DNA from: Thermoproteota archaeon
GTDB taxonomy: Archaea; Thermoproteota; Thermoprotei_A; EX4484-217-1; JAPDJV01
DNA length: 64,000 nt
Direction: 5' to 3'
Assembly: GCA_029258925.1 (NCBI GenBank)
Contig: JAPDJV010000003.1
Coordinates: 22,895-86,894 of the forward strand
Shown: positions 20,348 through 58,982 of the stretch, one piece after another
How positions within the stretch are numbered: position 1 is the first letter of the stretch
Layout: each line of letters begins with the position of its first letter
The notes under the pieces: generated by a model
The model's input: the letters and a program-made list of their open reading frames with translations, nothing else
Told to the model about the DNA's origin: nothing
The model's database searches: none
Program-made: the position numbers and the translations under genes

Positions 20348-22009
20348 TTAGAGACCGTAATGTATACGTGCTTCTTCAAGACTTATTCTCCCTTCTTCAA
20401 CGTCTCTTAGAACAAGTTCCCTACTCCTATTCTCCGGACGACCATAACCTCCCCCACCTGGAGTGCGTATGTAGACCACGTCTCCAGGCTCTAACTCCAC
20501 TACGTCGTTCCCCTTCAACGATATTCTCCTACCATCTTTCTTCAAAACATAGTGTTCTCCTGGCTTCCCAGGACCTCCACCCATTAATCCCCAAGGCTTC
20601 GTCTTAATTCTGCTTGCTACTAGACTGAAGATAGCTCTCCCCCTCCTAATAGTGAAAACCCTTCTAATACCCAAGCCGCCTCTATATTCTCCATGGCCGC
20701 ACGAGTTTTCCCTCAGAGAATATTCTAGAAACAGTATGGGATATTCTCTTTCAGCTATTTCTATTGGAGTATTCAGAGTGTTCGTCATGTTAACGTGTAC
20801 TCCGTCAACCCCTTCTCTCCCCGGCCTCCCACCCATGCCTCCACCAATAGTCTCGTAGAAAGCCCATTTCTTCCCATCAAATACCCCTCCTATCATCACG
20901 TTGTTCATGCTTCCGTGGGGGGCTGCTGGAACTCTTCCCGGCAGGCACTTAGAGAATGCAAGATGTATTACGTCCACTATTCTCTGAGAGGTTTCAAGGT
21001 TTCCTGCTGCAACAGGTGCTGGCTTAATGGGGTTCACTATTGAGCCTAGAGATGCTTCTACTCTAAGCCTCCTCAAAATCCCATGGTTCATCGGTAGATC
21101 CGGGTCTAAGATGGATTTCACTGCATAACATGAGGCAGAATACGTTACCCCGTAGACTGCATTTATTGGTGCATCAACCTGCTTCGACGAGCCTTTGAAA
21201 TCTATTATTATCATGTTGCTTGAAATATTGAGAGTACACTTTAATTTAAGCAGTTCCTCCCCGTATTCGAGGAAGTCAACCGCGCTATACGTTCCACCAC
21301 GCACTTTCCTTAATTTTTCTAGGAGATACCTCTCTCCGTAATCTAACACCATACTCCATGCTTCAATAACCGTGGAGTAACCATACTTATTGAAGATCTC
21401 CTCCATCCTCCTCTCTCCAACATTAAGCGAGGCAAGCTGTGCTTTTATGTCCCCCTTAGTATATTCCGGAACCCTGACGTTTCCAAGTAGTTCCTCTAGT
21501 ACCCGCCTGTTCAACTCTCCTTTCTCAACTATTTTAACGGGCTCTATGACAACGCCTTCCTCGTACAAGCTCTTAGCCATGGGATTTATGCTTCCAGGAG
21601 TCTTCCCACCCACATCAACGTGATGGGCTTTATTCACTATGAATCCAGCGAGCTCTCCTTTAAAGTAGAATGGTTTTATCAGGGTTATGTCGTTTAAGTG
21701 AGTTCCAGCAATATATGGATCATTCACTATTACTACGTCTCCCTCACTCAACGAAACACCTTTCTCATCAAGATACTTAAGAGTATTCTCTACACAGACC
21801 GTCATACTGCCTAAGTGTACTGGAATATGTTCTGCCTGAGCAACTAGTTCCCCTCTACTAGAAAATATTGCACAACTCATGTCCAGTCTATCCTTTATGT
21901 TGGGCGAGTAGGCTGTTCTCCTTAAAACAATCCCCATTTCCTCAGCTATGAAAATACAAGCGTTTCTAATAACTTCAACAGTCACTTTATCAACGGACAT
22001 TGCTTCCAC
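20348..22009 (-). CDS. hyuB: Hydantoinase B / 5-oxoprolinase subunit
   Basis: RTAYSPNIKDRLD.SCA, HIPVH, NDPY.AGTHLND, HH.DVGG, ETIGGG.G, HVNMTNT.NTP.E, TPGGGGYG. Confidence 0.92.
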   Translation of the reverse strand: MEAMSVDKVTVEVIRNACIFIAEEMGIVLRRTAYSPNIKDRLDMSCAIFSSRGELVAQAEHIPVHLGSMTVCVENTLKYLDEKGVSLSEGDVVIVNDPYIAGTHLNDITLIKPFYFKGELAGFIVNKAHHVDVGGKTPGSINPMAKSLYEEGVVIEPVKIVEKGELNRRVLEELLGNVRVPEYTKGDIKAQLASLNVGERRMEEIFNKYGYSTVIEAWSMVLDYGERYLLEKLRKVRGGTYSAVDFLEYGEELLKLKCTLNISSNMIIIDFKGSSKQVDAPINAVYGVTYSASCYAVKSILDPDLPMNHGILRRLRVEASLGSIVNPIKPAPVAAGNLETSQRIVDVIHLAFSKCLPGRVPAAPHGSMNNVMIGGVFDGKKWAFYETIGGGMGGRPGREGVDGVHVNMTNTLNTPIEIAEREYPILFLEYSLRENSCGHGEYRGGLGIRRVFTIRRGRAIFSLVASRIKTKPWGLMGGGPGKPGEHYVLKKDGRRISLKGNDVVELEPGDVVYIRTPGGGGYGRPENRSRELVLRDVEEGRISLEEARIHYGL

Positions 22010-24067
22010 CTATCTGCAGGTGATCCGAATACTCTCGTACTCGTCCACCACGGCCGTAAAGCCCTCGGGGACATATATTGTTGAATCGTAAGATTCTATT
22101 ATTGAGGGGCCCTTCAATAATGCTCCCGGCTTCAACATGCTTCTAGAGTAAACTGATGAGTCAATCCAGTTGTAGCCGTCAAATATTCTCCTAAAACCTG
22201 TTGCAACAGGTCTATGCTCCTCAACCCTTCTCCTAGGCATAACAGGCTTATCTGTAATCCCGATTACCGTGACCTTCACGGTGTCGACTATAACCTCTTC
22301 CTCCTCAGAGCGGAAGCCATACGTCTCCAAGTGTTTTCTGTGGAAGACGTCGAGAAGGGCATTGTAGTTTTCTACGTATGGAATTGTTAAACTGCTCCTC
22401 TCACCTCTATACCTCAAGTCAAGCATCCCCACAACCTTAATATTTGATTCAGACGCGCCCTCCTCCAAAACCGCTTTAGTACCTCGCATTGAAAGTTTCT
22501 CCAATAGTTCCGCGACCTCGAGCAAGCTCTCCTCGCGTAGTGGCTTCAGGTAGGGTGCAGACAGGTCAACTCTATAGTCTGCAACTAGGAGGCCGAATGC
22601 AGAGAATGCGCCCGGATTTTTGGGAACAATTATTTCTCTAACACCCAGCTCAACTGCTATCTCAGCTGCATGTAGCGGGCCTGCACCTCCGAAAGCGTAG
22701 AGCGTTGCCTTCCTAGGGTCGATCCCCCTTTCAATACTCACAATTCTAAGAGCTTTCGACATTAAAGTATTGGCTATCTTTATTATTCCGTATGCTGCTT
22801 CCTCTATGCTTAGAGAGAGCTTAGATGCGATTTTGCCAATAGCTTTCCTCGCTAAACTTTCATCCGCAACTATTTCTCCTCCCGCGAGAATCCTTGAAAG
22901 CCTTCCTAGAACAAGGTTTGCATCCGTTATAGTCGGTTCAACACCTCCCCTGCCATAACAAGCCGGTCCAGGACTTGACCCGGCGCTCATGGGGCCAACT
23001 CTCAGAGTGCCGCCTTCATCGATCCAAGCTATGCTCCCCCCGCCAGCACTTACTTCAGCCAGGTCTATGAAAGGATACCTTACAGGATACCCTGAACCCT
23101 TCACAATCCTACCACTATGAACCTTCCCACCGACCTCGTAGTCTAATGTTATGAGCGGGTCTCCCTCCACTATCATAGATGCTTTAGCAGTTGTTCCACC
23201 CATGTCGAAGCCCATTGATAGCTCGTGGCCGTACATATTAGAGTAGTATGCAACAGCTATCGCCCCGGCAGCTGGCCCCGACTCTATGAATGCTACGGGG
23301 GTTTCAACAGCTCTACTAATATTAGTTAGACCACCGCTACTCTGCATAACAAGTATTTTAGAGTTGAAACCCTTCTCTCCGAGCTCCCCTAAAAGCTTCT
23401 CCAAGTAATTTGAGAGAAGAGGCTTCAAGTACGCGTTAACCACTGTTGTACTTGTTCTCTCATACTCTCCTGGATGCGGGTCTACTTCGGAAGATAAGAT
23501 TATTTCCGCTGATACACCTTCCTCGACGAGTATTCTCCTAGCCTCTCTCTCGTGCACCGGGTTTACGTAGCTGTGTAAGAAGACTATTGCAACTACATCC
23601 ACTAACCCCTTTATTTTCCTAGCAATCCTCCTTAAACCCTCGACGTCCAAAGGCTTAATTATTTCTCCTTCAGTTGAAATCCTCTCCTCAACTTCAAACC
23701 TCATGTTCCTAGGTACAAGGGGCTTGGGCTTCTCGAAGAACAAGTTGTAGAGGCTTGGCCTGTTCTGTCTTCCAATCTCAAAAACGTCTCTAAAACCCTT
23801 CGTAGTTATTAGGGCTATTCTAGGCTTAACTAGGCCTACCTGGCCTAGGAGAAGGTTTGAGCCGAGGGTTGTTGCATGAACTATGTGCTCGACACTTCTA
23901 AGCTCTATTCCCCCTAATTCAATGCATGCAATAATACTCCTCCACGGCTCGTCAACATCTGTTAGAATCTTAACTATTCTCAAATCCCCGTTCTCGCAGT
24001 TGAGTACCGTTACGTCGGTGAATGTCCCACCCACATCTACTCCTATACGGCACCTAGCCAAGCCCAT
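22010..24067 (-). CDS. hyuA: Hydantoinase A / 5-oxoprolinase ATP-binding subunit
   Basis: GVDVGGTFTD, HATT, EYER.STTVVNAY, ESGPAAG, DMGGTT, FGGAGPLHA. Confidence 0.93.
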   Translation of the reverse strand: MGLARCRIGVDVGGTFTDVTVLNCENGDLRIVKILTDVDEPWRSIIACIELGGIELRSVEHIVHATTLGSNLLLGQVGLVKPRIALITTKGFRDVFEIGRQNRPSLYNLFFEKPKPLVPRNMRFEVEERISTEGEIIKPLDVEGLRRIARKIKGLVDVVAIVFLHSYVNPVHEREARRILVEEGVSAEIILSSEVDPHPGEYERTSTTVVNAYLKPLLSNYLEKLLGELGEKGFNSKILVMQSSGGLTNISRAVETPVAFIESGPAAGAIAVAYYSNMYGHELSMGFDMGGTTAKASMIVEGDPLITLDYEVGGKVHSGRIVKGSGYPVRYPFIDLAEVSAGGGSIAWIDEGGTLRVGPMSAGSSPGPACYGRGGVEPTITDANLVLGRLSRILAGGEIVADESLARKAIGKIASKLSLSIEEAAYGIIKIANTLMSKALRIVSIERGIDPRKATLYAFGGAGPLHAAEIAVELGVREIIVPKNPGAFSAFGLLVADYRVDLSAPYLKPLREESLLEVAELLEKLSMRGTKAVLEEGASESNIKVVGMLDLRYRGERSSLTIPYVENYNALLDVFHRKHLETYGFRSEEEEVIVDTVKVTVIGITDKPVMPRRRVEEHRPVATGFRRIFDGYNWIDSSVYSRSMLKPGALLKGPSIIESYDSTIYVPEGFTAVVDEYESIRITCR

Positions 24068-24143: not shown

Positions 24144-24317
24144 TTAAAACAATTTGTGTTGAAGAGATGCGACAGAAGACGGGAACTCGTGGCCACATCT
24201 AGGACACCTAATGTACCCGCAGTTCCCGAATGTAGCGTAGGGACAGCCCCCACACGAAGTGACCCTAGCATACGAGACGTCAAACACCATGCCACATTTA
24301 GGGCACTTCACTTCCAC
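24144..24317 (-). CDS. 57-aa Cys-rich putative metal-binding protein (missed by ORF track)
   Basis: GGTGA RBS, GTG start; MEVKCPKCGMVFDVSYARVTSCGGCPYATFGNCGYIRCPRCGHEFPSSVASLQHKLF*. Confidence 0.82.
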   Translation of the reverse strand: MEVKCPKCGMVFDVSYARVTSCGGCPYATFGNCGYIRCPRCGHEFPSSVASLQHKLF

Positions 24318-24409
24318 TACTTTTTCACCGTTAAGGAGTATCGGGGAAACTAATATATTAATGATGCTATAGTTACTCCCTGATATAGCTCAAATCATCG
24401 TCAGATTAC

Positions 24410-25420
24410 TTGAGGCGGGCAGTGATCGACTTGAGTAGAATATGTTCTAGCACCGTGGGAAGCTTCCCCTTAACTTATAGTGAGAGAAACGTGCTCAGAG
24501 TCCTAGAGGATTTGGAGGAAGTTGGAATAGACTACCCGGCTACACCCCAGCTCAGAGGATTCATAGAGATATTCCTAGATCCGCTAGTCGATGAAGGTTT
24601 CCTCGCTAGAGGCTCGAGTGGAGAATACTACGTGGTTAAGCAGGAATTCGAATCCCTTGAACCCCCAATAGACTGGTTCAGAGAATATGTTATTGCACCC
24701 CGTTTTAAGGAGGGATTTGAGGGTTTAAGGCTCAGCATTACAGGTCCTCTAACTCTAGCAAGCCGCATAGCACCGGGGAGCGGCTCAGAACACGGTATTT
24801 TGAACAGCATGCTCTCAAATAAGAAGTTTACCTTAGAGTTCATGGGATCCTACGTTAGCAGAGTTGTCGAAAAAATATCTTCACTTGGATACAGTGTCAC
24901 AGTCGTAGATGAGCCTGTGCTGAGCATTATTGTTGGACGTAGAAGGATATTGTTCAACTACAGTGTCGAAGAACTAACGATGCTCATCGACATGGTTCTA
25001 GGTAAGTCTACTTCGAGAATTAGAGGAATCCACGTTTGCGGTAGAATACCGCCACTACTGACAAAGATACTGCTCTCAACATCAGAAGCATCGCTACTAG
25101 ACCATGAATACTGCGATACTCCAGAAAACTACGAGGCCTACAGTCTAGAAGAGTTGGAATCCTACAACAAATATGTTTCAGTCGGAGTAGTGTCTTCCAG
25201 AAGGCCCGAGGTGGAGAGTGTTAAGGAAGTTTACGACAATATTGTTAGAGCATGGGAGAAATATGGCAGCAGACTGTTCTTCGTCAAACCGGACTGCGGC
25301 TTCATGGCACTTAGAGGATTCTACGGAGACGAGGAGAGGGAATACATGGTTTCCATTAGAAAACTAAAGGTTATTGTTGAAGCATTAAAATTGTTCGAGC
25401 AAGACTTCTTGGAGAGGTAG
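24410..25420 (+). CDS. metE: Core (C-terminal-domain-only) cobalamin-independent methionine synthase family protein
   Basis: 336 aa; VGSFP, ITGPLTL, VDEP; Zn ligands IHVCG (H,C), DHEY (E), PDCGF (C); lacks the N-terminal half of full-length MetE. Confidence 0.8.
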   Translation: MRRAVIDLSRICSSTVGSFPLTYSERNVLRVLEDLEEVGIDYPATPQLRGFIEIFLDPLVDEGFLARGSSGEYYVVKQEFESLEPPIDWFREYVIAPRFKEGFEGLRLSITGPLTLASRIAPGSGSEHGILNSMLSNKKFTLEFMGSYVSRVVEKISSLGYSVTVVDEPVLSIIVGRRRILFNYSVEELTMLIDMVLGKSTSRIRGIHVCGRIPPLLTKILLSTSEASLLDHEYCDTPENYEAYSLEELESYNKYVSVGVVSSRRPEVESVKEVYDNIVRAWEKYGSRLFFVKPDCGFMALRGFYGDEEREYMVSIRKLKVIVEALKLFEQDFLER

Positions 25421-25424
25421 ATAG

Positions 25425-27176
25425 TTGCCTAAACTGAAGATACTGCCTATGAATATCGAGGTTGATGTGGAGGAGAACACTGTTCTAGCAGATGCAATCA
25501 AAGCTGTCATCCCAGAATTCCCTACTCCCTGCGGAGGCCTAGGTTTCTGTGGTAGGTGCAGGGTTAGGGTCATCGTAGACGGATTATCCGAACCCTCCGG
25601 GAACGAGAGAGTGCTCTTAGGTGGAAGCAGGTTTAGACTATCTTGTCAAGCCAAGGTGATCGGGGATACAGTCGTAGAGATTCTGAAACCGCATGAAGAA
25701 CATAAGATTACTGTTTCAGGAATAGAGCCCACAATAGAGTTCCGCGACCCTATAATTAGAGCTATTGAAGTGAGGTTGAATGGGGTATTCGAGGCACCAC
25801 TGTCTAAAGTATTGCTTGAAGAAGCTGGTGGAACGATTCATGTAGACGGTGCAGTATTGAAGCTGGCTAATGTCAAGAGTAAAAATGTTAGAGTGTTGGT
25901 GGATTGGAGTGGAAGGATCATTGGGTTAAGGGAGAATCGTTCGAGAAATCTCGGCCTAGCCGTGGATTTGGGTACAACTAAGATAGCAGGATACCTTGTG
26001 GACTTGGAGACGGGAGAGAGCCTGGGCGAAAGCTACGTTATAAACCCCCAGATAGACTTTGGCGACGACGTTGTGACGAGAATTATGAGAGCATTGGAGC
26101 CGAAGGGCTTAATAGAGCTTAGAGAGAGGGCAATAGCTGGTATAGAGAGTGTTGCGTTGAAGACGTGTAGTCGTGAAGGCTTGAATCCAAAAGACATCGT
26201 TGCCTCGGTTATTGTAGGAAACAACGTCATGACCAACATTCTCCTAGGTTTACCGGTGGAAACGCTTGCAAAACACCCTTATCAACCTATTCTAGCAAGC
26301 CCCGTCCTATTGAGAGGAAAGACCGTTGGGTTCAATCTCCTTGAAAACACTTTAATCTACATGCCTCCCGGAGTAGCTGGATTTGTGGGTTCAGATGCTG
26401 TAGCCGACATTGTTTTGGTGTGGAAGCTCGGGTTAAATGGGAAAATACTAATACTTGACGTCGGCACGAACACTGAGATAGTTCTAATAGAGGATTGGAG
26501 GAGAATTCTCGTAACTTCTGCCCCAGCTGGTCCAGCAGTAGAGGGAGCACACATTTCTATAGGAGCCAGGGTTGTTGATAGAGCGTTCAGGAAAGCCAGG
26601 GTCTCCAGTAGGGGTGAGATAATCTTAGAGCCGAGCATAGAGAACCCCGTTGGACTCACTGGATCCGCGTTGATAAGCCTCCTAGCATGTCTCCTCGAGA
26701 AAAACTATATAGATGAGGGGGGGAGGATTGTCGAAGGCTTCGATGTTGACTCTACGGGCCTGAAAAGAATTACTGTATACCGGTCGCGTGATGGAGAAAC
26801 TCTCAGTTTAACACAGCTTGACGTAAGAGAACTCCAGAAAGCTAAGGCTGCTATAGCAGCGGGATGGAGGACAATATTGGAAAAGGCAGGAACCAATGCA
26901 TTAGACTACGTGGTGGTTGCAGGGAGCTTCGGATCCTCGATAAACGTTGAACACGCCATTAGAATAGGTCTCCTACCAGACGTTGGGAGAGACAAGGTAA
27001 TTGTGGTGGGGAACGCTGCTGGAATTGGAGCTAAAGCAATAATGCTGAATGGCGAGTGCAGAAGGGTGGGGGAGGAGGTTTCTAGGAAAGCATTCTACCT
27101 GAATCTAGCTGAATTGGGAGAGTGGGAGAAAACGTGGGTGCAAAGCTTATTTTTAAGACCTATTAAAATCAGCTAG
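25425..27176 (+). CDS. ATP-dependent reductive activator of corrinoid proteins, RACo type (N-terminal 2Fe-2S + ASKHA/DUF4445)
   Basis: CGGLGFCGRC...LSCQ ferredoxin; DLGTTK, DVGTNTEI, APAGPAVEG, TQLDVRELQKAKAAI, AGSFG, GNAA. Confidence 0.92.
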   Translation: MPKLKILPMNIEVDVEENTVLADAIKAVIPEFPTPCGGLGFCGRCRVRVIVDGLSEPSGNERVLLGGSRFRLSCQAKVIGDTVVEILKPHEEHKITVSGIEPTIEFRDPIIRAIEVRLNGVFEAPLSKVLLEEAGGTIHVDGAVLKLANVKSKNVRVLVDWSGRIIGLRENRSRNLGLAVDLGTTKIAGYLVDLETGESLGESYVINPQIDFGDDVVTRIMRALEPKGLIELRERAIAGIESVALKTCSREGLNPKDIVASVIVGNNVMTNILLGLPVETLAKHPYQPILASPVLLRGKTVGFNLLENTLIYMPPGVAGFVGSDAVADIVLVWKLGLNGKILILDVGTNTEIVLIEDWRRILVTSAPAGPAVEGAHISIGARVVDRAFRKARVSSRGEIILEPSIENPVGLTGSALISLLACLLEKNYIDEGGRIVEGFDVDSTGLKRITVYRSRDGETLSLTQLDVRELQKAKAAIAAGWRTILEKAGTNALDYVVVAGSFGSSINVEHAIRIGLLPDVGRDKVIVVGNAAGIGAKAIMLNGECRRVGEEVSRKAFYLNLAELGEWEKTWVQSLFLRPIKIS

Positions 27177-27189
27177 CGGGATGAGGTAG

Positions 27190-27855
27190 GTGAGTCGGGA
27201 AGAAATTGAGAAATTGCTTAGAGAGTTGAGAAATAGAGTGTTAGAGGGGGATGATGAGGGTGCAGAGAATATTGTCACCAGGCTCGCCGAGCTTAGAGTG
27301 GACCCCAAGAGGATAATTGAAGAAGCGCTCACACCTGCAATGAATAAAGCCGGAGAACTCTATGAAGTGGGAGAATACTTCATACCGGAACTAATGATGG
27401 CCGCGGAAGCATTTAAAGCAGCATTCAATGTCGTAAAACCTCTTCTAAAAACGGATGAAACTGGGGGGAGAGCAACAATTATCATAGGAACCGTTGCCGG
27501 AGACATTCATGAACTCGGGAAAAACCTCGTTGCAACAATGCTTAGAATAGCAGGGTACAATGTAGTAGATCTCGGAGTGAATGTTCCAGCAGAAAAATTC
27601 GTTGAAGAAGCTCTAAAACACGGGGCTAAGATCATAGGTTTAAGCGCTCTCATGTCGACAACCATGGTTGAGCAAAGGAAAGTCATTGAAATTCTAGAGA
27701 AGAAGGGATTAAGGGATAAGTTCAAGGTGATAGTTGGAGGTGCACCTGTAACAGAGGATTGGGCCAGGCAGATAGGTGCAGATGCTTACGGGAGAGACGC
27801 GTTTGAAGCAGTTAGAAAAGTTAGAATGTTGCTGGGTGAAGAGGGGAGTGCCTAG
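27190..27855 (+). CDS. Methyltransferase cognate corrinoid protein (MttC/MtgC-like)
   Basis: Cap domain (GEYFIPELMMAAEA) + GDIHELGKNLV (DxHxxG), GLSALM, VGGAPV, GADAY. Confidence 0.95.
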   Translation: MSREEIEKLLRELRNRVLEGDDEGAENIVTRLAELRVDPKRIIEEALTPAMNKAGELYEVGEYFIPELMMAAEAFKAAFNVVKPLLKTDETGGRATIIIGTVAGDIHELGKNLVATMLRIAGYNVVDLGVNVPAEKFVEEALKHGAKIIGLSALMSTTMVEQRKVIEILEKKGLRDKFKVIVGGAPVTEDWARQIGADAYGRDAFEAVRKVRMLLGEEGSA

Positions 27856-29293
27856 GCCTAAACTGAGAATTATGTCTGAAGAAGAATTCCTGAAAATACA
27901 CAATGCATCGATAAAACTCTTAGAAGACGTGGGCGTCTTCATAGACAATAAGGAGGGGCTCAGATCCCTCGAGGAAGCAGGTGCCTTAGTTGATGGGAGG
28001 AGAGCTAGGATTCCTAGGAGGATTGTTGAGGACGCGTTGGAGAGAGCTCCAAAGACTATAACAATATACGATAGAGACGGAGCAAAATATGCGGAGCTTA
28101 GGCCAGGAGGGGAGACACTGTTTGCTCCCGGAAGCGCTGCAGTGAAAATATTAGACTATAACTCCACTACTCCAAGACCACCAGCACTCAGAGACCTCGT
28201 AAACATAGCTTTAATAGTTGAAAACCTGAGTTCAATAAAATTGCAGAGTACAGCAGTAATACCGGTAGATGTGCCTATCGAGCACAGGGATTCAATAAGG
28301 CTTCTACCAATCCTCGCGTTTTCCAGTAAACCGATTGTCACGGGAGCATTCTCCGATGAAGGATTGATTAACATGCTTAAAGCATTAAGCATTTTGAGAG
28401 AAGACTACGCGGATAAGCCTATGGCAATATTCGACGTCTGCCCCTCCCCGCCATTGAAGTGGAGCTATACCACGTGCCAGAACTTGCTGGATTTGGCTAG
28501 GACAGCTATGCCTGCAGAAATAATTTCAATGCCCCAAATAGGTGCGACGGGTCCTGCAACAATAGCTGGAAGCCTTATCCAACACCATGCAGAGGTTCTA
28601 AGTGGAATAGTCATGGCTGAAACCGTTAACCCCGGTACGCCAGTCATATACGGGGGGAGTCCAAGCCTATTCGATATGAGGTATGGGACAAGTAGGATAG
28701 CGGCACCTGAAGCAATACTTCTGACTGCCGCATACATTGGAATATGTGGTTTCCTAGGATTACCGTGCCACGCCTACCTGTGCCTCTCGGACTCCAAGAC
28801 CTTAGATTACCAGGCTGGGATGGAGACATTAATGGGCGCTCTAATAGCTCTCTTAACAGGAGTCAACGTTGCATCCGGTCCAGGTATGCTTGAATACGAG
28901 AGTGTTCTGAGTATTGAGAAAATATTGTTGGACTCGGAAGTTATTGAAGTCGCTTCTAGAATACTCCGTGGGTTCGAGATTGCCGATGAAACTATTGCAT
29001 TGGATGTTATGAAGAGAGTAGTTACTGGTAAAATGCACTATTTAACTGAAAAACACACTTTAAAATGGTATAGGAGAGAACACTATATTCCAATGCTAGT
29101 GGATACTACAACCGTGGAAGCGAGGGAGCCCGATAGGATTATTGGAAGAGCAAGAGAGAAGGTTTTAGAAGTGTTGAGGTCAGCTAGGTCTAAGGTGCTT
29201 GAGGAGAAGCTGTTCTCAGCTCTCATAAAATACTTCTCTAAATTAACTGGGATAAGAGAGGAGAAGCTGGTCGCAATGTTAGGAGTGAAATGA
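27848..29293 (+). CDS. mttB: Trimethylamine methyltransferase (MttB) superfamily, non-pyrrolysine member
   Basis: Start moved to GTG 27848 overlapping the corrinoid gene stop (MPRPKLRIMSEEE); SPPLKW, GATGPAT.AG, PGTPVIYGG, SDSK..DYQAG.E, GPGMLE; no in-frame amber. Confidence 0.9.
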   Translation: MPRPKLRIMSEEEFLKIHNASIKLLEDVGVFIDNKEGLRSLEEAGALVDGRRARIPRRIVEDALERAPKTITIYDRDGAKYAELRPGGETLFAPGSAAVKILDYNSTTPRPPALRDLVNIALIVENLSSIKLQSTAVIPVDVPIEHRDSIRLLPILAFSSKPIVTGAFSDEGLINMLKALSILREDYADKPMAIFDVCPSPPLKWSYTTCQNLLDLARTAMPAEIISMPQIGATGPATIAGSLIQHHAEVLSGIVMAETVNPGTPVIYGGSPSLFDMRYGTSRIAAPEAILLTAAYIGICGFLGLPCHAYLCLSDSKTLDYQAGMETLMGALIALLTGVNVASGPGMLEYESVLSIEKILLDSEVIEVASRILRGFEIADETIALDVMKRVVTGKMHYLTEKHTLKWYRREHYIPMLVDTTTVEAREPDRIIGRAREKVLEVLRSARSKVLEEKLFSALIKYFSKLTGIREEKLVAMLGVK

Positions 29294-30805: not shown

Positions 30806-31612
30806 TCACCATAATATCAGTAGTTCACAGTATTTATCACCTAGATTAATGCACTTAGACTCCACAACCTTAACCCTCCCCTCCTCCCCAAGGACGACAT
30901 CTAGGAAGCCTGCTATGTAACCTCTTGTGAAGTGTGATGTAGCCTTGTCTACCACATGGCCTTTTAGAACTCTGCACTCCCATTGATCGAGAACACGTAC
31001 TCTTATGTTATTTCTAGACGTAGAAGCTATTTCCCCCCTCATCAAGCTCATTGCACAGACTCTCCTCAAAAGGAAATTTAGGGCTCTCGCAGGCTCCGTT
31101 GTTCCAATCTCTTGTAAGAATAGTTTTCCAAGAGTCCTCCCGGAAGTATAGCCTATGTGGTACAATATTGCTGAAATACTTTCGTAGCCAAATACTTTCC
31201 TGCTTTCAACGAGTAATCCGAGGAGCTCGTCTTTGCCGAGAAATATGCCCTCCTTATCAGCCATGACAAGTGGGTAGAGGTGCTCGTTAACTATGACTTC
31301 TTCAGGCATGGGTTCAACAACTTTGACTTCCTTAACTCTCTCCAGAGCGGTTATGTCCTCTTTAATCCGCTTCACTAAGCCCATTTTGCCTCCCAAGTCT
31401 GCTATAACGTAAAATACCGCTATGTTCGCTAGGGGGTCTGCAACTGAAACTGTTAGAGAATAAGGCTTCACATTGTGGTCTCTGAAAACGTCTATTACCT
31501 CGTCTAGTACTCCCAGTTCGTTTTCTATTAGAACGTGAAAGCCTACGAGCTCTCTTCCCTTAGATACAGCATAATTTGACAGTATATACGGGAAAACCAT
31601 TAAATCACCCAC
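30806..31612 (-). CDS. ACT-like + V4R domain protein
   Basis: N-terminal ACT-like (ENELGVLDEV); C-terminal V4R: WEC...HFTRGYIAG...VVESKCINLGDKYCE. Confidence 0.85.
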   Translation of the reverse strand: MGDLMVFPYILSNYAVSKGRELVGFHVLIENELGVLDEVIDVFRDHNVKPYSLTVSVADPLANIAVFYVIADLGGKMGLVKRIKEDITALERVKEVKVVEPMPEEVIVNEHLYPLVMADKEGIFLGKDELLGLLVESRKVFGYESISAILYHIGYTSGRTLGKLFLQEIGTTEPARALNFLLRRVCAMSLMRGEIASTSRNNIRVRVLDQWECRVLKGHVVDKATSHFTRGYIAGFLDVVLGEEGRVKVVESKCINLGDKYCELLILW

Positions 31613-33354: not shown

Positions 33355-34302
33355 TTAGCGGTCTCTCTCCTCCAAGTATATTTCACTGACGATTTTCTCG
33401 ACCTCTTCCGCTGGGAGAGGGGGAACGTTCTTCCTGTTCCACAAAGAAATCTTATTGAGACACTCCCGATAGCTTGCTCTCTCAAAATACTTGTAATATT
33501 CTGCTAAAGCCCTCAACGCCGTCAACCTCTCGAATCCCGAGACACCTCTTAAAATCTTCTTTAGAAGCGACGGCTTCTCAACAAGTTTTATCCAAGAATA
33601 TTCTCCTCTACATAACTCCCTTAAACCCATTAGTACTTTCTCAACTATTTTCTCCGGAACAGGGTTAGAGAAGTATTCTCTCAGATCAAATGATTCCGGA
33701 CTTATGGGCTTCATGTTCTCGTCTACTGGGAAAACTGTTCTCCCAGATTTATCGTGGATCGTATAGGGGATTCTTGACAATCTTGAAACGTCTACTGCTG
33801 ATCTTTCATCTAGAGATCTTAAACTTAAACCCGTTATACCCAGTTCGCCTAGAAGAGACATTAAAAGCTTCTTTAGGAAAACCTTTGATCCCTCAATAGG
33901 CCTTGGAAGAAACACGTATAGGTGGTATCCTTTAAGCCCGCTGAACACTACTAGCGGTCTACAATATGATGAAAGGTGGTCAAGTAGTTTTGCAGCCTCT
34001 CTACATGCAACATCTATGTTCCTAGGATAGTCCAGGTCTAAGAAAATCTTCTCTAGAGCAATAACAGTCCCCGGCTTAGGATGAACCCCTGTGAAGTAGT
34101 TCACGGATTGGTATGCTGGTTTCCGTAGAGCTAAGTCTTCCTCCAAGTGTTTCAAGTATTCCTCGAGCATACGTGCAGGGTAAAATATTCTAGCCGGGTG
34201 GCCGTGGTCTCTACCCCACATTCTATATTCTAATAATTTGAAGCCAGCTATCCCGATAAACCATTCAGCCATGAAGTCTTTTAAGTAGTCTGCTTCCAAC
34301 AT
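33355..34302 (-). CDS. Archaeo-eukaryotic primase (AEP) catalytic domain fused to PriCT-1/PriX-like helical domain
   Basis: Motif I IFLDLD, motif II FSGLKGYHLY, motif III DVSRLSRIPYT; C-terminal WNRKNVPPLPAEEVEKIV. Confidence 0.82.
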   Translation of the reverse strand: MLEADYLKDFMAEWFIGIAGFKLLEYRMWGRDHGHPARIFYPARMLEEYLKHLEEDLALRKPAYQSVNYFTGVHPKPGTVIALEKIFLDLDYPRNIDVACREAAKLLDHLSSYCRPLVVFSGLKGYHLYVFLPRPIEGSKVFLKKLLMSLLGELGITGLSLRSLDERSAVDVSRLSRIPYTIHDKSGRTVFPVDENMKPISPESFDLREYFSNPVPEKIVEKVLMGLRELCRGEYSWIKLVEKPSLLKKILRGVSGFERLTALRALAEYYKYFERASYRECLNKISLWNRKNVPPLPAEEVEKIVSEIYLEERDR

Positions 34303-34385
34303 TATTTGAAGTCCCTAACCTACACTAAAGGATGAGCACAGCCTATAAGTATATGGGTGGAACTCCTAGTTGGAGTGGAGATCTC

Positions 34386-35622
34386 ATGGTTCTAGTATAC
34401 CTCGTTAAGCCTAGAAGCGTTGAGTCTTGCGAGGAGGAGAAGAAGGGTGCTTTCCCACCTTTAGGACTACTCTACTTATCCTCAGCTTTCAGAATTTACG
34501 GATGTAGTGTAAAGTTCTACGACTTGGATTTCACGAAAGTCAATGGACTAGTTGACGATGTTTCCTCGGAAAATCCCGAAATAATAGCTTTGACCTCGAC
34601 TACACCGAGCTACCATAATACCGTGAAAGTTATACAGAGGGTGAGGGAGGCTTCTCCAAGTTCCATAATAGTTGTTGGGGGACCTCATGCAACGCTCGTC
34701 CCGGAAGACTTCCGTAATGTGGCTGATATAGTAGTGGTAGGCGAGGGCGAGAACGCTGCGTCTGAGATCGTGGAATCGGCTGTGGGAAAGCATTTAAAGA
34801 AGCCGATTATTAAGAGGCCTCCTGTAGAAGATCTTGATAAACTACCATTTCCGGATAGAAGTATTCTGAATATTGAACAATACCATGAAAATATTGGAGC
34901 AATGTTCACTAGCAGGGGATGCCCGTATAACTGCCTCTTCTGCACCACGAGATTCATAATGGGCAGGAAATTTAGGGCTAGAAGCCCGATTAACATTGTC
35001 GAAGAATGGAGGATGCTGAAGAAGTATAATGCTCCTAAGATCAGATCCTAGACGACGTCTACACTTACAATAAGCGTAGAGTTCTGGAGGTCTGTAGACT
35101 TGTTAAAGAAGAGGGGTTGGGAGAGTGGAGTCTTCCAAATGGTGTTAGAGTTGACAACGTCGACGAAGAACTCCTCGAGTCGATGGCGGACTCCGGTTGC
35201 ACGACAATATGGTTCGGTGTCGAGTCCGGTTCTCAGAGAGTCATTAACGTGCTTAGGAAGGGGTTACATTAAAGCAGGTGGAGGACGCTGTTAAGTGGGC
35301 TAAGAATGTTGGGATAGCTGTCGGACTATTCTTCATGGTAGGTGCTCCAGGCGAAACTCTTGAAACAGTTCACGAAACACTCAGGCTTATAGAGAGACTT
35401 GACCCCGACTACGTTCACTTCAGTATAGCGACTCCCTACCCGAGAACAGATTTCTGGAAGTGGGTTGAAGAAAACGGTAGATTCCTTACTCTAGATTACA
35501 GTAAGTTTGAAAGAGAGTTCATATTTGAAACACCCGAGTATCCTCCCCAAGACAGGTTGAAGGCTGCTGAAATAATTGAGAGGGAACTCTCGGATAAATA
35601 CGGTATCAAAATAATGGCTTGA
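34386..35622 (+). pseudogene. B12-binding radical SAM protein interrupted by two single-base deletions
   Basis: PPLGLLYL, GGPHAT, RGCPYNCLFC; frame breaks at ~35045 (IR[I]LDD) and ~35263 (RKG[V/I]TLKQ); the three segments join into about 412 aa. Confidence 0.85.
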
Positions 35623-56108: not shown

Positions 56109-56915
56109 CTATGTTCTACGGGATTCCTCCTTCCTCCTTAAGAACACTATCTCGCAGTGCGGGTCTCCCCTCGCTATGCATGCTGTCTCTATTGCAACTA
56201 TGGGTGAGATGCCGAATAATTCCTCCACTACTCCAACCATCAGTCCCCTCGTAAAGAACGATGAAGGTTTCCCGCTGCCCTTGCTTAACTCGCATTCAAA
56301 CGATTTCTCCACTCTAACAATTAATCGAAATGGACTAATGTTCTCGTACGTCGCTTCCGCTACGCCGAAGCCTGTGATCTGGAATAATGGCATGAATATT
56401 TTCCTAAATATTTCTCTAGGACCGTGGACTCCAAGTTTCTTCCCAATGATCTTCAATCCAACTCCGAAGCTCTTACCCAATTCTAATCCTAGATTGTACA
56501 GGATTGCCATTGCAGCCCCCTCCCCTATACGATCCTTTAAGCCCTTTATGAGTCCCTTGAAGTCTGTATCAGTAAACATTATCACTCTGTGTGCTCCAGG
56601 TATTTGCGGAACACCCTTCAAGTCTGCTATCATGCCGGCAGCAATGGGTTTAATGGGTTCGACGTGTGCATCCTTAAAAGCTCTCGACACCTCCCCCACA
56701 ATCCTCCCGGGATCCCCTTTTGAATCCGTTAAATCCAGGAATACGACGGTCCTGCACCTTCCACCCCTAATTGAAGATAATACGTGTAAGACTTCTACAT
56801 TCATTTCCCCAAGTATAGGCATCAGGTTTCCTAAAACCTTCACTAATGGCTCCTCTGACTCGATGGATATACCGTAGAGTACTCTGCTGGGAGCATAGAT
56901 GAAGGAGGGCTGCAA
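56109..56915 (-). CDS. ACT-like + V4R domain protein (paralog of 30806-31612)
   Basis: SFEC...FFTRGLMVG...IETACIARGDPHCE; start reassigned to TTG 56915 (GAGGAG RBS), giving a length matching the paralog. Confidence 0.8.
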   Translation of the reverse strand: MQPSFIYAPSRVLYGISIESEEPLVKVLGNLMPILGEMNVEVLHVLSSIRGGRCRTVVFLDLTDSKGDPGRIVGEVSRAFKDAHVEPIKPIAAGMIADLKGVPQIPGAHRVIMFTDTDFKGLIKGLKDRIGEGAAMAILYNLGLELGKSFGVGLKIIGKKLGVHGPREIFRKIFMPLFQITGFGVAEATYENISPFRLIVRVEKSFECELSKGSGKPSSFFTRGLMVGVVEELFGISPIVAIETACIARGDPHCEIVFLRRKEESRRT

Positions 56916-57263
56916 TACCTTCTCCTCAAATCCAGTTACTCGATTAACATTGTTGGAAAAACTTTGATTTAAGCATTTAGCTGAGTTTCGGAGACATAAC
57001 ACTCCACGAATTCTCCAATAACATGGAGGCATGTTCGCGGACTCCATGAAGACGACATAGTTTCCTCTCAACATATAGTTCAACCTTGCCTCAAGATCTA
57101 ACAACAACCAGGCTCTATCCACGCTACAGATGCCCTGCTTAGCTAGGAGTTTGGAACTCCATGGGCTCACTTAGCTGAAGTTTTCGAGACGAACGTGATA
57201 AATTATAATATCTAGTGGTTTCGGTAGTGAACTAGGCAGTGCATTGAATTGGAGGAGTCCTCG

Positions 57264-58982
57264 ATGGTTGAAGTTAGGCTTAGAGGCAAACCTGCTTCAC
57301 CCGGTGTAGGCGTTGCACCATCAATTCTAATAGTGCACAGGTTGCCGGGGGAGGCTGTGGTAGAAGATCCTCTCAAAGCTTTCAGAGAGGCTGTTGCAGA
57401 GGAGGGGAAGTGGATTGGGGGTGTTGTCGAGAGGCTTTGGGCCGAGGGGAGGGAGGATGAGGCACTGATATTGGAGGCCCAACTACTAATACTTGATGAC
57501 CCTAATTTCACGGGCTTAGTTGAGAAACTTATTGGGGAAGGGTTGAGCCTGGCTGATGCTGTTAAGAAAACCGTCAACGAGGTTGCGGAACTCTTCGGGA
57601 AAACAGCTTACATGAAAGCTAGGAGAAGCGATTTAATGGATCTAGCGAACAGGATAATAGCTAGGGTGCACGGTGCAACTGTTCCAGACTTGAAGAATAT
57701 TAGTAGAATGGTTGTAGTAGTGGCAGACGAACTCTACCCAAGTGAAACGGCTGAGATGAGGAAGGAGCTTGTCGCTGGAATAGCTACTGAGAGAGGTGGT
57801 GTAACCGCTCACGCAGCAATTATTGCCAGAAACTACGGTATACCAGCGGTAGTGGGTGTGGAAAGCCTTCTCGAACACGTTAAGGGTGGTGAACTAGTCG
57901 TAGTCGACGGGGTTGATGGCACTATAATAGTTAACCCTAAGCCTGAGACTGTTGAGAAAGCTTTGAGTAAGGGGAGGAGGATTAGGGAATTATACGAGAA
58001 GTTCTCTAAGGTGGAAGCATATGCTGCTGACGGTATTAGAGTCCATGTTGAAGCAAACATTGGCTCACCCGACGAGCTCGAGCTAGCAGTATTCTTTAAA
58101 TCCGATGGCGTAGGCCTTCTTAGAACGGAGTTCCTCTTCATTGGGAGAGACAGTCCTCCAAGCGAGGAGGAACAATATAGTATTTACAGGGAGCTTGCTT
58201 CCAGGATTTCACCCAAACCCCTGATCATAAGACTCTTAGATGTTGGCGGAGACAAGCCCCTACCATACGTCAAGTTTCGCAGAGAAGAGAACCCCTTCCT
58301 AGGGTTAAGGGGTATTAGATTATTGTTTAAGGAGAGATCTCTGCTTGAAACACAGGTTAGAGCAGTGCTCAGAGCAGCTGTTCACGGGAATATTTGGATT
58401 ATGGCTCCAATGATTTCAACGATAAGTGAAATAGTGGAGTTCAGGAAAGTTGTTGAAGAAGAGGCTTCCAGACTTGAAAGCAGAGGCATCCCTGTAGGTA
58501 GACCTAGAATAGGTGTAATGGTTGAAGTACCTTCAATAGCTCTGCAAGCAGATGCTGCAGCAGAACACGTGGACTTCTTCAGCATCGGCACAAACGATCT
58601 GACACAGTACACTCTTGCAGCAGACAGAGTTAACGCAGATGTTGCACACATATACGACCATGCACATCCAAGTGTTCTAAGACTAGTGAAAATGGTTGTG
58701 GATGCTGCTGAAGCAAAGAACAGGATTGTCGGAGTGTGCGGTGAGGCTGGAAGCGACCCCGATGTTGCACCAATACTATTGGGGTTAGGAGTTAGAAGGC
58801 TCAGTGTTGCACCGAACCAGATACCGTTTGTCAGATACTTCGTTTCAAGGATGAAGATGTCCGAGGCATCGAGCATCGCCAACAAGGCGTTAAGCGCGGT
58901 GAGCCCTGTTGAAGTCAGGAACTACGGTAGGAGAATTATTGGTGAAAACGCTGTATTCGAGAGCAATGGGTTAATATTTTAA
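57264..58982 (+). CDS. ptsI: PEP-protein phosphotransferase (PTS Enzyme I)
   Basis: ASPG, GGVTAHAAI (phospho-His), GVGLLRTEF, IRLLDVGGDK, EENPFLG.RG, MVEVPS, SIGTNDLTQY, VCGE; ATG 57264 with GGAGG RBS. Confidence 0.95.
   Translation: MVEVRLRGKPASPGVGVAPSILIVHRLPGEAVVEDPLKAFREAVAEEGKWIGGVVERLWAEGREDEALILEAQLLILDDPNFTGLVEKLIGEGLSLADAVKKTVNEVAELFGKTAYMKARRSDLMDLANRIIARVHGATVPDLKNISRMVVVVADELYPSETAEMRKELVAGIATERGGVTAHAAIIARNYGIPAVVGVESLLEHVKGGELVVVDGVDGTIIVNPKPETVEKALSKGRRIRELYEKFSKVEAYAADGIRVHVEANIGSPDELELAVFFKSDGVGLLRTEFLFIGRDSPPSEEEQYSIYRELASRISPKPLIIRLLDVGGDKPLPYVKFRREENPFLGLRGIRLLFKERSLLETQVRAVLRAAVHGNIWIMAPMISTISEIVEFRKVVEEEASRLESRGIPVGRPRIGVMVEVPSIALQADAAAEHVDFFSIGTNDLTQYTLAADRVNADVAHIYDHAHPSVLRLVKMVVDAAEAKNRIVGVCGEAGSDPDVAPILLGLGVRRLSVAPNQIPFVRYFVSRMKMSEASSIANKALSAVSPVEVRNYGRRIIGENAVFESNGLIF

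Follow-up and report, generated by a model that had tools for sequence, protein, structure and literature searches.

A candidate corrinoid-dependent methionine synthase operon with a MetE-type core enzyme in an uncultured Thermoprotei archaeon

Core methionine synthases and methylated-amine systems

Core methionine synthases are thought to draw their methyl groups from corrinoid proteins, and in every family the physiological donor has so far been predicted only (PMC7857596, PMC7005905). The methanogen enzyme MesA (NF002119) is a methylcobalamin:homocysteine methyltransferase described by Price et al. 2021, who predicted corrinoid-protein donors for core synthases (PMC7857596); for MesA the predicted donor is MtrA. 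In Ruegeria, Mausz et al. 2025 described an MttB-family enzyme and a corrinoid protein that is shared with a split MetH (PMC12478193). Clusters for quaternary amines in other organisms, such as MtgB/MtgC/MtgA of D. hafniense and mtrH-mttB-mttC-activase of Culexarchaeia, likewise contain a trio of MT1, corrinoid protein and RACo- or RamA-type activase. Their MT2 is MtrH- or MtgA-like (THF or H4MPT) or MtaA-like (CoM), and the archaeal MttB clusters are usually read as catabolic, with MtrH as the MT2 (10.1101/2022.04.06.487207).

The locus studied here, within a 64-kb stretch of DNA (the window), contains the same trio, but its sole MT2 candidate is a MetE-type protein. We refer to its four genes as g1 (core-only MetE-type zinc enzyme), g2 (RACo-type activase), g3 (corrinoid protein) and g4 (MttB-superfamily methyltransferase). 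A close counterpart is MtgBCDE of R. pomeroyi. It too combines an MT1 of the MttB family with a free-standing corrinoid protein, a protein for reactivation and a distinct subunit that binds homocysteine, and there one corrinoid carrier links a methylated amine to methionine synthesis, as we propose for g1-g4. However, the homocysteine module of R. pomeroyi is MetH-type (BHMT-like) rather than MetE-type; its pterin-binding MtgD is essential and its genes are scattered, whereas here a single putative archaeal operon has no pterin module; and R. pomeroyi is an aerobic bacterium that uses glycine betaine, whereas g4 lacks the betaine-binding residues. BHMT itself converts a methylated amine and zinc-activated homocysteine to methionine, as would the proposed g1-g4 system, but it does so as a single enzyme of MetH-type fold, by direct transfer and with no corrinoid; g1-g4 would use a two-step transfer through a B12 protein and would need an ATP-dependent activase. 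A literature search, which covered few subscription journals, turned up no description of an MttB cluster whose MT2 slot is filled by a MetE-type enzyme. The first-pass annotation had offered these genes as a candidate new module for methionine synthesis. The gene combination is new, and its parts are known; Price 2021 (PMC7857596) and Mausz 2025 (PMC12478193) in part anticipate the idea.

The four genes and their products

The four co-directional ORFs occupy window positions 24431-29293 on the forward strand and have no internal stops. The g1 and g2 genes are separated by 4 bp, and g2 and g3 by 13 bp. The tight coupling claimed for all four genes in the first-pass annotation stands for these two junctions. 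The 8-bp overlap it gave for g3 and g4 requires g4 to begin at GTG 27848; from ATG 27872 there is instead a 16-bp gap, and the resulting protein of 473 aa is close in length to its homologues (472-480 aa). Shine-Dalgarno-like motifs lie upstream of g2, of g3 and of GTG 27848. Upstream of g1 we place a putative promoter/5' region at 24318-24430 on the same strand, with an AT-rich stretch, aaactaatatattaatgatg (about 24347-24366), as a candidate archaeal TATA element. Rfam and tRNA scans of the 64-kb window returned no matches. A divergent hydantoinase A/B pair lies upstream of the locus; a link to it, for example through supply of an N-methyl compound, was considered and set aside, as the pair adjoins no related locus. 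Two peptide ABC systems and proteases are also encoded in the window, and the organism appears to be peptide-fed.

The longest ORF for g1 runs from 24410 to 25420. The start at TTG 24431, which yields 329 aa (24431-25420, forward strand), is favoured by the N-termini of family members and by the public gene call, and in an exact-sequence look-up the 329-aa version was on record while the 336-aa ORF had no match. The protein is a single barrel lacking the N-terminal folate-binding Meth_synt_1 domain, and it matches Pfam PF01717 (Meth_synt_2) with 39.2 bits against a cut-off of 21. Its motifs are GSFP (24458-24469), PQ (24545-24550), DEP (24908-24916), HVCG (25031-25042), E226 (within 25100-25108) and DCGF (25292-25303), all on the forward strand. 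Seven of seven MetE zinc and homocysteine residues are retained, with Gln standing at the position of E484: S11, Q40, D160, H201, C203, E226 and C289, invariant in an alignment of 42 family members, align with MetE S433/E484/D599/H641/C643/E665/C726 and with the corresponding residues of MesA-type enzymes, which likewise have Gln at the E484 position (alignment; PMC7857596). The AF2 model (pLDDT 95.4) finds MetE catalytic barrels as its best folds, with TM scores of 0.72-0.75. A profile of the g1 family matches T. maritima MetE with an E value of 1e-13; MesD (3rpd) is a weak match to the same profile (E 2.5e-4).

The assignment of a core methionine synthase to the MT2 slot was the central claim of the first-pass annotation, and it has stood up to both of the refuting conditions set out there, on the grouping of g1 and on the recurrence of the gene linkage. 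When the possible groupings were checked, g1 fell with the MetE-type homocysteine methyltransferases and not with the MtaA/CoM or pterin methyltransferases. An MtaA/MtbA-type CoM methyltransferase was rejected, since a Pfam scan of g1 gave no match to PF01208 (UroD family) and the scores for MtaA (4ay7; E 0.078, TM 0.58) both fall below those for MetE. We consider it quite improbable that g1 methylates some other thiol, such as sulfide, a coenzyme-M-like cofactor or another mercaptan, which would make the operon a methylamine:thiol methyltransferase system with no connection to methionine. MetE, MtaA and UroD do share one fold and a His-x-Cys...Cys zinc site that activates a thiol, and g1 lies under all curated methionine-synthase cut-offs; but the MtaA match is far weaker in both profile and fold, and a weakly MetF-like gene, described below, adjoins many family members.

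Within the MetE-type enzymes, g1 passes none of the NCBI methionine-synthase models. Membership in MesA was judged by the curated cut-off score or by about 40% identity to a characterised enzyme; g1 scores 67.8 bits with NF002119 (cut-off 258) and is 25% identical to a representative that passes this cut-off. A split-MetE catalytic subunit (NF003317) was rejected at 44.5 bits against a cut-off of 406, and no partner gene was found: neither the window nor any of the 81 homologous loci described below has a second MetE-like ORF or split-MetE partner. All NCBI methionine-synthase models reported at E <= 0.01 scored far below their cut-offs. MesA is nevertheless the nearest curated family, and in a whole-library search the representatives passing NF002119 formed the first outgroup to the g1 family. 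Both are single MetE-type barrels (about 300-330 aa in MesA) with no folate-binding domain, and they share their zinc ligands as well as the Ser/Gln/Asp residues for homocysteine. Unlike MesA, g1 has no N-terminal insert but carries two inserts of its own, one after DEP and one after DCGF, which may serve for docking. The predicted donor for MesA is MtrA, whereas g1 has a dedicated corrinoid protein, of the DxHxxG type, encoded in the same gene cluster. MesA is restricted to methanogens; g1 belongs to a small Thermoproteota/Bathyarchaeia family whose identity to MesA-type enzymes is 25% and whose members come from Thermoprotei, Bathyarchaeia and Korarchaeia. Because g1 lies so far below the curated cut-offs, its function is transferred across 25% identity; we predict that it is a methyl-corrinoid:homocysteine methyltransferase (MT2).

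Pfam domains agreed with the identities first proposed for the other three genes: an activase of RACo type, a corrinoid protein with a DxHxxG motif and an uninterrupted MttB. The product of g2 (25425-27176, forward strand), a RACo-type ATP-dependent reductive activase of corrinoid proteins, consists of an N-terminal 2Fe-2S ferredoxin domain (Fer2, PF00111; CGGLGFCGRC ... CQAK, 25530-25655), a middle domain (Raco_middle; PF17651, 153 bits) and a C-terminal ASKHA domain (RACo_C_ter; PF14574, 187 bits). It is AcsV-like (266 bits) but reaches neither the AcsV nor the RamA equivalog cut-off, and so is a RACo-family member of neither named subtype. The g3 gene (27190-27855, forward strand) encodes a corrinoid (B12-binding) carrier protein with a B12-binding_2 cap (PF02607) and a Rossmann B12-binding domain (PF02310). 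Its DxHxxG His-on motif is DIHELG, residues 105-110 (27502-27519). The protein resembles MtgC and MtbC, and its score of 208.1 with TIGR02370 is just short of the cut-off of 215.3.

The g4 product (27848 or 27872 to 29293, forward strand) is a non-pyrrolysine MttB-superfamily methyltransferase (MT1), matching PF06253 (MTTB) with 269.7 bits over residues 4-464. A pyrrolysine-type MttB (TIGR02369) was rejected, as the score was 329.6 against a cut-off of 525, the gene has no in-frame stop and the alignment puts Leu where M. barkeri MttB has its pyrrolysine. Its subfamily signature comprises PGSAA (28127-28141), PCHAY (28763-28777) and SGPGMLEYE (28874-28900), on the forward strand. Among solved structures D. 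hafniense MtgB comes nearest (213 bits); there, glycine betaine is bound by Y97/R312/H348/F356 (PMC13080624). At these positions g4 has S/H/S/E, a signature common to 10 of the 11 MttBs linked to g1 homologues. Since none of the four betaine-binding residues is kept, glycine betaine is an unlikely substrate for g4, and the betaine named in the first-pass annotation is not favoured by these sequences.

Neighbourhoods of g1 homologues

Loci of g1 homologues were surveyed in 81 other species-level genomes. A corrinoid protein and/or a RACo activase was located within 5 kb of the g1 homologue in 42 of the 81. Most of the linked genes were much closer than this, the distance staying within 2 kb for corrinoid-protein genes in 32 of 37 cases, for activase genes in 27 of 34 and for MttB genes in 9 of 10. 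None of these three was linked at 5-8 kb, a zone in which 328 kb was surveyed. Because the linked genes are concentrated below 2 kb and absent beyond 5 kb, their clustering around g1 is not due to chance. On the g1 tree, members with a linked MttB are spread over four or more distinct clades, and one locus (L007) has the identical order g1-RACo-CoP-MttB with overlapping genes. Recurrence of the linkage to corrinoid protein, activase and MttB across several lineages is what the first-pass annotation had proposed to look for. It should be noted that 39 of the 81 family members stand alone among housekeeping genes, with no corrinoid-related neighbour; a link to corrinoid genes near g1 is therefore not universal. 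These solitary members would fit an adjacency devoid of functional meaning, with g1 unrelated to its three neighbours. That reading is scarcely credible in view of the concentration of linked genes below 2 kb with none at 5-8 kb, the recurrence of the arrangement in several clades and with three donor types, and the gaps of 4 and 13 bp and SD-like motifs at the locus itself. What the computations show is the order of the genes, their domains, the catalytic residues and fold, and the conservation of the linkage.

The donor gene near the g1 homologue was MtrH-like at 16 loci, MttB at 10 and UroD-like at 4. As the donor varies from locus to locus, the MetE-like g1 appears as the constant acceptor module. 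At 15 loci an adjoining gene has weak similarity to methylene-THF reductase, and it often accompanies the MtrH-like genes; in a PDB profile search this neighbour family gave marginal MTHFR matches only. A weakly MetF-like neighbour is what would be expected of a methionine-synthesis cluster.

The MttB/corrinoid/activase trio might instead be mainly a catabolic methylamine demethylase whose main MT2, for example an MtrH-like methyl-corrinoid:pterin transferase, is encoded elsewhere, with g1 a housekeeping methionine synthase that taps a small share of the methyl-corrinoid pool. There are parallels for such an arrangement in the mtrH-mttB-mttC-activase clusters of other archaea, where MtrH is read as the MT2 (10.1101/2022.04.06.487207), and in Ruegeria, where the corrinoid protein serves betaine catabolism and methionine synthesis alike (PMC12478193). 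In T. pendens, moreover, MttB adjoins a corrinoid protein only, and neither there nor in Infirmifilum is the MttB-corrinoid pair beside a MetE-like gene. On the other hand, MtrH was found within 5 kb at 0 of the 10 MttB-linked loci. Across the 64-kb window there is no MtrH, pterin-binding gene or further MetE, the weakly MetF-like A2 family has no match there, and a UroD/MtaA-type MT2 is absent among the window ORFs scanned with Pfam; outside these 64 kb the genome may encode other methionine synthases or MT2s. In addition, g1 heads the operon, 4 bp from g2. We consider a mainly catabolic trio unlikely.

A Thermofilum origin finds no support, as the nearest named relatives are Ignisphaera and Desulfurococcales MAGs and the MttB locus of T. 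pendens is without g1 and RACo. The host is an uncultured member of the Thermoprotei and not clearly Thermofilum.

Proposed pathway and its meaning

Taken together, the four genes probably form one operon that encodes a corrinoid-dependent modular methionine synthase. From the observations above we infer each chemical step, which way the methyl group moves, the substrate and what the system does for the cell, and the best reading of the pathway runs from a methylated amine to the corrinoid protein and on to homocysteine. At the zinc site of g1, L-homocysteine would be activated and would receive its methyl group from methyl-Co(III)-g3, after which methionine would be released. With ATP and a low-potential electron, g2 would restore g3 that had been accidentally oxidised to Co(II) to the Co(I) state. 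The role of the system would be synthesis or regeneration of methionine without a methyl-pterin. Related archaea combine this acceptor, carrier and activase with an MtrH-like methyl-pterin methyltransferase or a UroD-like methyltransferase. Since the donors appear exchangeable, the window would hold a "methylamine-fed" version of the system.

The same proteins could conceivably run in reverse, with g1 loading the corrinoid protein with methyl groups from methionine or a different methyl thioether, and with g4 N-methylating an amine. However, a thioether that is not activated gives up its methyl group poorly, and MetE/MetH chemistry strongly favours methionine formation. Corrinoid methyl transfers are in principle reversible, a bidirectional MtgD was proposed by Mausz et al. 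(PMC12478193), and the peptide ABC systems and proteases suggest an organism fed on peptides; but characterised MttB-family enzymes are all demethylases (PMC13080624), and we regard the reverse direction as very improbable.

Returning to transfer toward methionine, we give about an even chance to a broader proposal: that g1 founds a fifth, as yet undescribed family of core methionine synthases, with its own carrier and activase and with interchangeable MtrH-, MttB- or UroD-like donors, and that the MttB version allows the present organism, as a hyperthermophilic heterotroph, to make or regenerate methionine directly from a methylated amine in its surroundings, bypassing methyl-pterins. In that event the operon would correspond to BHMT, but with a corrinoid as its basis and with a homocysteine module that is MetE-type, not MetH-type. 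In the g1 family the gene order itself spells out the donor chain, so that the question of the donor can be put to a direct test with four small thermostable proteins.

If the proposal is true, a further methionine synthase family would become available for annotating the genomes of Thermoprotei and Bathyarchaeia, two groups with poorly resolved amino-acid pathways. The MT1/corrinoid modules of methanogenesis and acetogenesis would also serve biosynthesis, and the large, mostly uncharacterised non-pyrrolysine MttB superfamily would gain a physiological outlet and a new substrate class to seek.

Operon layout and surroundings

At 24410-29293 the window carries four co-directional forward-strand ORFs without internal stops, here called g1 to g4. 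The first-pass annotation had described them as a coupled set, and their predicted types were confirmed by Pfam: g1, the core-only MetE-type zinc enzyme, matches Meth_synt_2 (PF01717, 39 bits); g2, the activase, has a 2Fe-2S ferredoxin domain, the RACo middle domain and a C-terminal ASKHA domain; g3, the corrinoid protein, has a B12-binding_2 cap and a B12-binding domain, with the motif DIHELG located at residues 105-110; and g4 matches MTTB over its full length (PF06253, 270 bits). Gaps of 4 bp and 13 bp separate g1 from g2 and g2 from g3. The 8-bp overlap described for g3 and g4 holds if g4 starts at GTG 27848, but becomes a 16-bp gap with a start at ATG 27872; Shine-Dalgarno-like motifs lie upstream of g2, g3 and GTG 27848. 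The g1 ORF (24410-25420) is real, but the alignment of its family, like the public annotation, shifts its start from 24410 to TTG 24431.

Upstream of g1, and divergent from the operon, is a hydantoinase/oxoprolinase A and B pair (20348-24067, reverse strand), caprolactamase-like but below cut-offs. The pair is not conserved beside related g1-homologue loci, and for this reason no link to the operon is proposed. A spacer of 342 bp separates the hydantoinase operon from g1 and contains a 57-aa Cys-rich ORF (24144-24317, reverse strand) with two CPxCG motifs of the zinc-ribbon type and a weak MJ0042_CXXC match; it is absent from the public gene call, and its position leaves only about 110 bp for a g1 promoter. 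V4R-domain proteins, which are small-molecule-binding regulators, are encoded at 30806-31612 and 56109-57170 (both reverse strand). The former, which follows the operon at a distance of about 1.5 kb, could regulate it.

The gene content of the window, with two oligopeptide-type ABC systems, proteases, an amidohydrolase, hydantoinase A/B, FeoB, a PTS enzyme-I-like protein and an XPB-Bax1 pair, looks like that of a peptide-using heterotroph. Among about 39 of the 51 large window ORFs, Pfam and NCBIfam searches found no genes of methanogenesis, the Wood-Ljungdahl pathway or CoM metabolism, and no RNA genes were found in the window. The XPB helicase shows 57-58% identity to Ignisphaera proteins and 65% to metagenome proteins. 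The source belongs to uncultured Thermoprotei and lacks close relatives that are named; an origin in Thermofilum is not supported. The PTS-like gene (57249-58982, forward strand) encodes a PEP-utilising enzyme of full length whose domains follow the order of PTS enzyme I, a protein uncommon in archaea; T. pendens is noted for possessing a PTS. A B12-binding radical SAM gene (34332-35622, forward strand) is broken up over three or more reading frames (34332-35051, 35117-35272 and 35278-35622), reflecting either a pseudogene or assembly frameshifts. A 315-aa protein (33355-34302, reverse strand) weakly resembles the small subunit of DNA primase; it adjoins small ORFs without assigned function and may be the primase-polymerase remnant of a mobile element.

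The g1 family

A search of 5.8 billion proteins yielded 147 relatives of g1 at E <= 0.001. Among the best 120 of the 147, named relatives belong to Desulfurococcaceae, Zestosphaera, Ignisphaera, Staphylothermus, Thermogladius, Infirmifilum and Bathyarchaeota, and the nearest non-self sequence is just 50% identical. In a genome scan, relatives were also found in Methanomethylicota and Korarchaeum, the closest being in Desulfurococcales MAGs (48-50% identity). The family is small; its profile, run against 1.84 billion cluster representatives, gave 74 matches at E <= 1e-30 and 658 at E <= 1e-3.

Invariant across 42 aligned members are V-G-S-F-P, P-Q, D-E-P, H-V-C, a Glu and D-C-G, which align with the MetE residues that bind homocysteine (Ser433/Glu484/Asp599) and ligate zinc (His641/Cys643/Glu665/Cys726) (PMC7857596). 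Gln at the Glu484 position is common to g1 and MesA-type enzymes. The AlphaFold model of g1 is confident (pLDDT 95.4, pTM 0.92), and structural comparison gave TM scores of 0.72-0.75 with the catalytic barrels of T. maritima MetE, 0.69 with MesD (3rpd), 0.58 with MtaA and a still lower value with UroD. The family profile likewise matched MetE at E 1e-13 vs 0.078 for MtaA. Residues, fold and profile scores thus favour MetE, and g1 is predicted to be a MetE-type homocysteine methyltransferase core rather than a CoM or pterin methyltransferase, in agreement with its first description as a core MetE-family enzyme. Assignment as an MtaA-type CoM enzyme was rejected, its TM and E values both being weaker than those of MetE. 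Conservation of the residues that bind the amino acid makes any acceptor but homocysteine unlikely.

Membership in NF002119 (the MesA-type model; 68 bits vs a 258-bit cut-off), NF003317 (44.5 bits vs 406) and NF004712 (41.8 bits vs 387) was also rejected. The tail of the profile search contained sequences of about 300-310 aa that pass NF002119; g1 is 25% identical to one of these. Because Price et al. treat sequences under 30% identity as separate families, g1 would represent a family outside those described, with MesA as its nearest described neighbour.

Synteny and the putative methyl-donor enzymes

Synteny was surveyed in one genome per species (GTDB representatives; 80 loci with g1 relatives) together with the complete Desulfurococcaceae genome CP072660, using as flank queries the window's own proteins and MtrH from CP072660. 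A corrinoid protein and/or RACo was encoded within 5 kb of the g1 homologue in 42 of 81 non-self loci. These linked loci contained an MtrH-family gene (16/42), MttB (10/42), a 430-aa UroD-family protein (4/42) or the corrinoid protein and RACo alone (12/42); the other 39 of the 81 are stand-alone, the g1 homologue typically lying among ribosomal and other housekeeping genes. Distances from the g1 homologues served as an internal control for linkage: 32 of 37 corrinoid-protein genes, 27 of 34 RACo genes and 9 of 10 MttB genes lay within 2 kb, and none was found beyond 5 kb in the 328 kb surveyed. Chance adjacency of g1-g4 is very unlikely. One locus (L007) conserves the full four-gene order, g1-RACo-corrinoid-MttB, with its genes overlapping; L008 and L009 have the order g1-corrinoid-MttB, and in Zestosphaera-type loci g1 lies beside an MttB-corrinoid pair of divergent orientation, after which comes RACo.

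A neighbour-joining tree of g1 homologues distributes the MttB-linked members over at least four clades, with MtrH-linked, UroD-linked and stand-alone members in between. The simplest reading of these gene arrangements is that a MetE-like protein, a corrinoid protein and an activase form the constant part, and that the methyl-donor enzyme is exchangeable. The UroD-family protein (L015, L016, L019 and L029; e.g. L029:11535-12827), encoded at loci that also have a g1 homologue, RACo and a corrinoid protein, would make a third candidate for the methyl-donor role.

In 15 loci, mostly of the MtrH type, the g1 homologue adjoins a 240-277-aa protein without a Pfam family (L004, L034, L036, L037, L044, L053, L058, L065, L067, L072-L075, L077 and L079; e.g. 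L036:7168-8001). Its similarity to methylenetetrahydrofolate reductase is weak (NCBIfam NF006396, E 6.6e-7; PF02219 in 6 of 14 members, best E 2.8e-4), with marginal PDB matches to MTHFR, and the family may represent a far-diverged MetF of archaea. If that holds, these loci encode a reductase, an MtrH-like protein, a corrinoid protein and a MetE-like protein, the same logic as MetF plus MetH with different parts, and would support methionine synthesis as the role of the g1 family. The window has no homologue of this family, no MtrH, and no second MetE or corrinoid protein; MttB stands there in place of the MetF-like gene and MtrH.

Among solved structures, g4 comes closest to D. hafniense MtgB, a glycine betaine methyltransferase (213 bits, vs 176 bits for M. 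barkeri MttB). As the first-pass annotation had it, g4 is a non-pyrrolysine enzyme: the MttB pyrrolysine aligns with Leu, and the ORF has no internal stop. Its suggestion of betaine as a methyl source fared less well. The MtgB residues that bind glycine betaine, Y97, R312, H348 and F356 (PMC13080624), are replaced in g4 by Ser, His, Ser and Glu, and this substrate is unlikely. The same pattern occurs in 10 of 11 MttBs linked to g1 homologues, which argues that these form a subfamily of their own with a common substrate. Homologues of g4 at 45-53% identity are widespread in Thermoprotei, including T. pendens and Infirmifilum, where MttB adjoins only a corrinoid protein. In Infirmifilum sp. SLHALR2 (CP182482, L090:7324-7999) gene calling divides the corrinoid protein upstream of MttB into two ORFs, one for a cap domain of 108 aa and one for a B12-binding domain of 104 aa, through either a natural split or a frameshift.

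A proposed route to methionine

The anatomy and linkage of g1-g4 are observed directly. [quoted passage not shown] The placement of a core methionine synthase in the MT2 position, where methyl is taken off the corrinoid, withstood both sequence-level tests, of g1 identity and of synteny, and the inferred transfer from amine through corrinoid to homocysteine is the best-supported interpretation. In the main rival reading, a plausible if less probable one, the other three proteins would serve mostly in catabolism together with an MT2 whose gene lies elsewhere, and g1 would do no more than share their carrier. Such sharing has a parallel in Ruegeria, where genetics showed that a corrinoid protein and an enzyme of the MttB family also serve a split MetH (Mausz et al., PMC12478193); there the homocysteine subunit is MetH-type and the pterin subunit essential, whereas g1 is MetE-type. 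Reverse methyl flow is very unlikely.

Price et al. defined MesA-D, predicted MtrA or CoFeSP as donors and speculated that other corrinoid proteins serve some paralogues; the g1 family, MttB and MtrH lay outside their treatment (PMC7857596). Deobald et al. made the same general prediction for Dehalococcoides (PMC7005905). Papers on archaeal MAGs report mtrH-mttB-mttC-activase clusters in which MtrH is read as MT2 (10.1101/2022.04.06.487207), and a 2010 paper records a pyrrolysine-free MttB in Thermofilum and assigns it no function (PMC2933860). The novelty claimed for the module stands in part: a literature search of incomplete coverage found no paper with a MetE-type enzyme in the MT2 position, but the concept is partly published (PMC7857596, PMC12478193). 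Which methyl donor serves core methionine synthases physiologically is a long-standing question, for which g1-g4 offer a compact, testable system.
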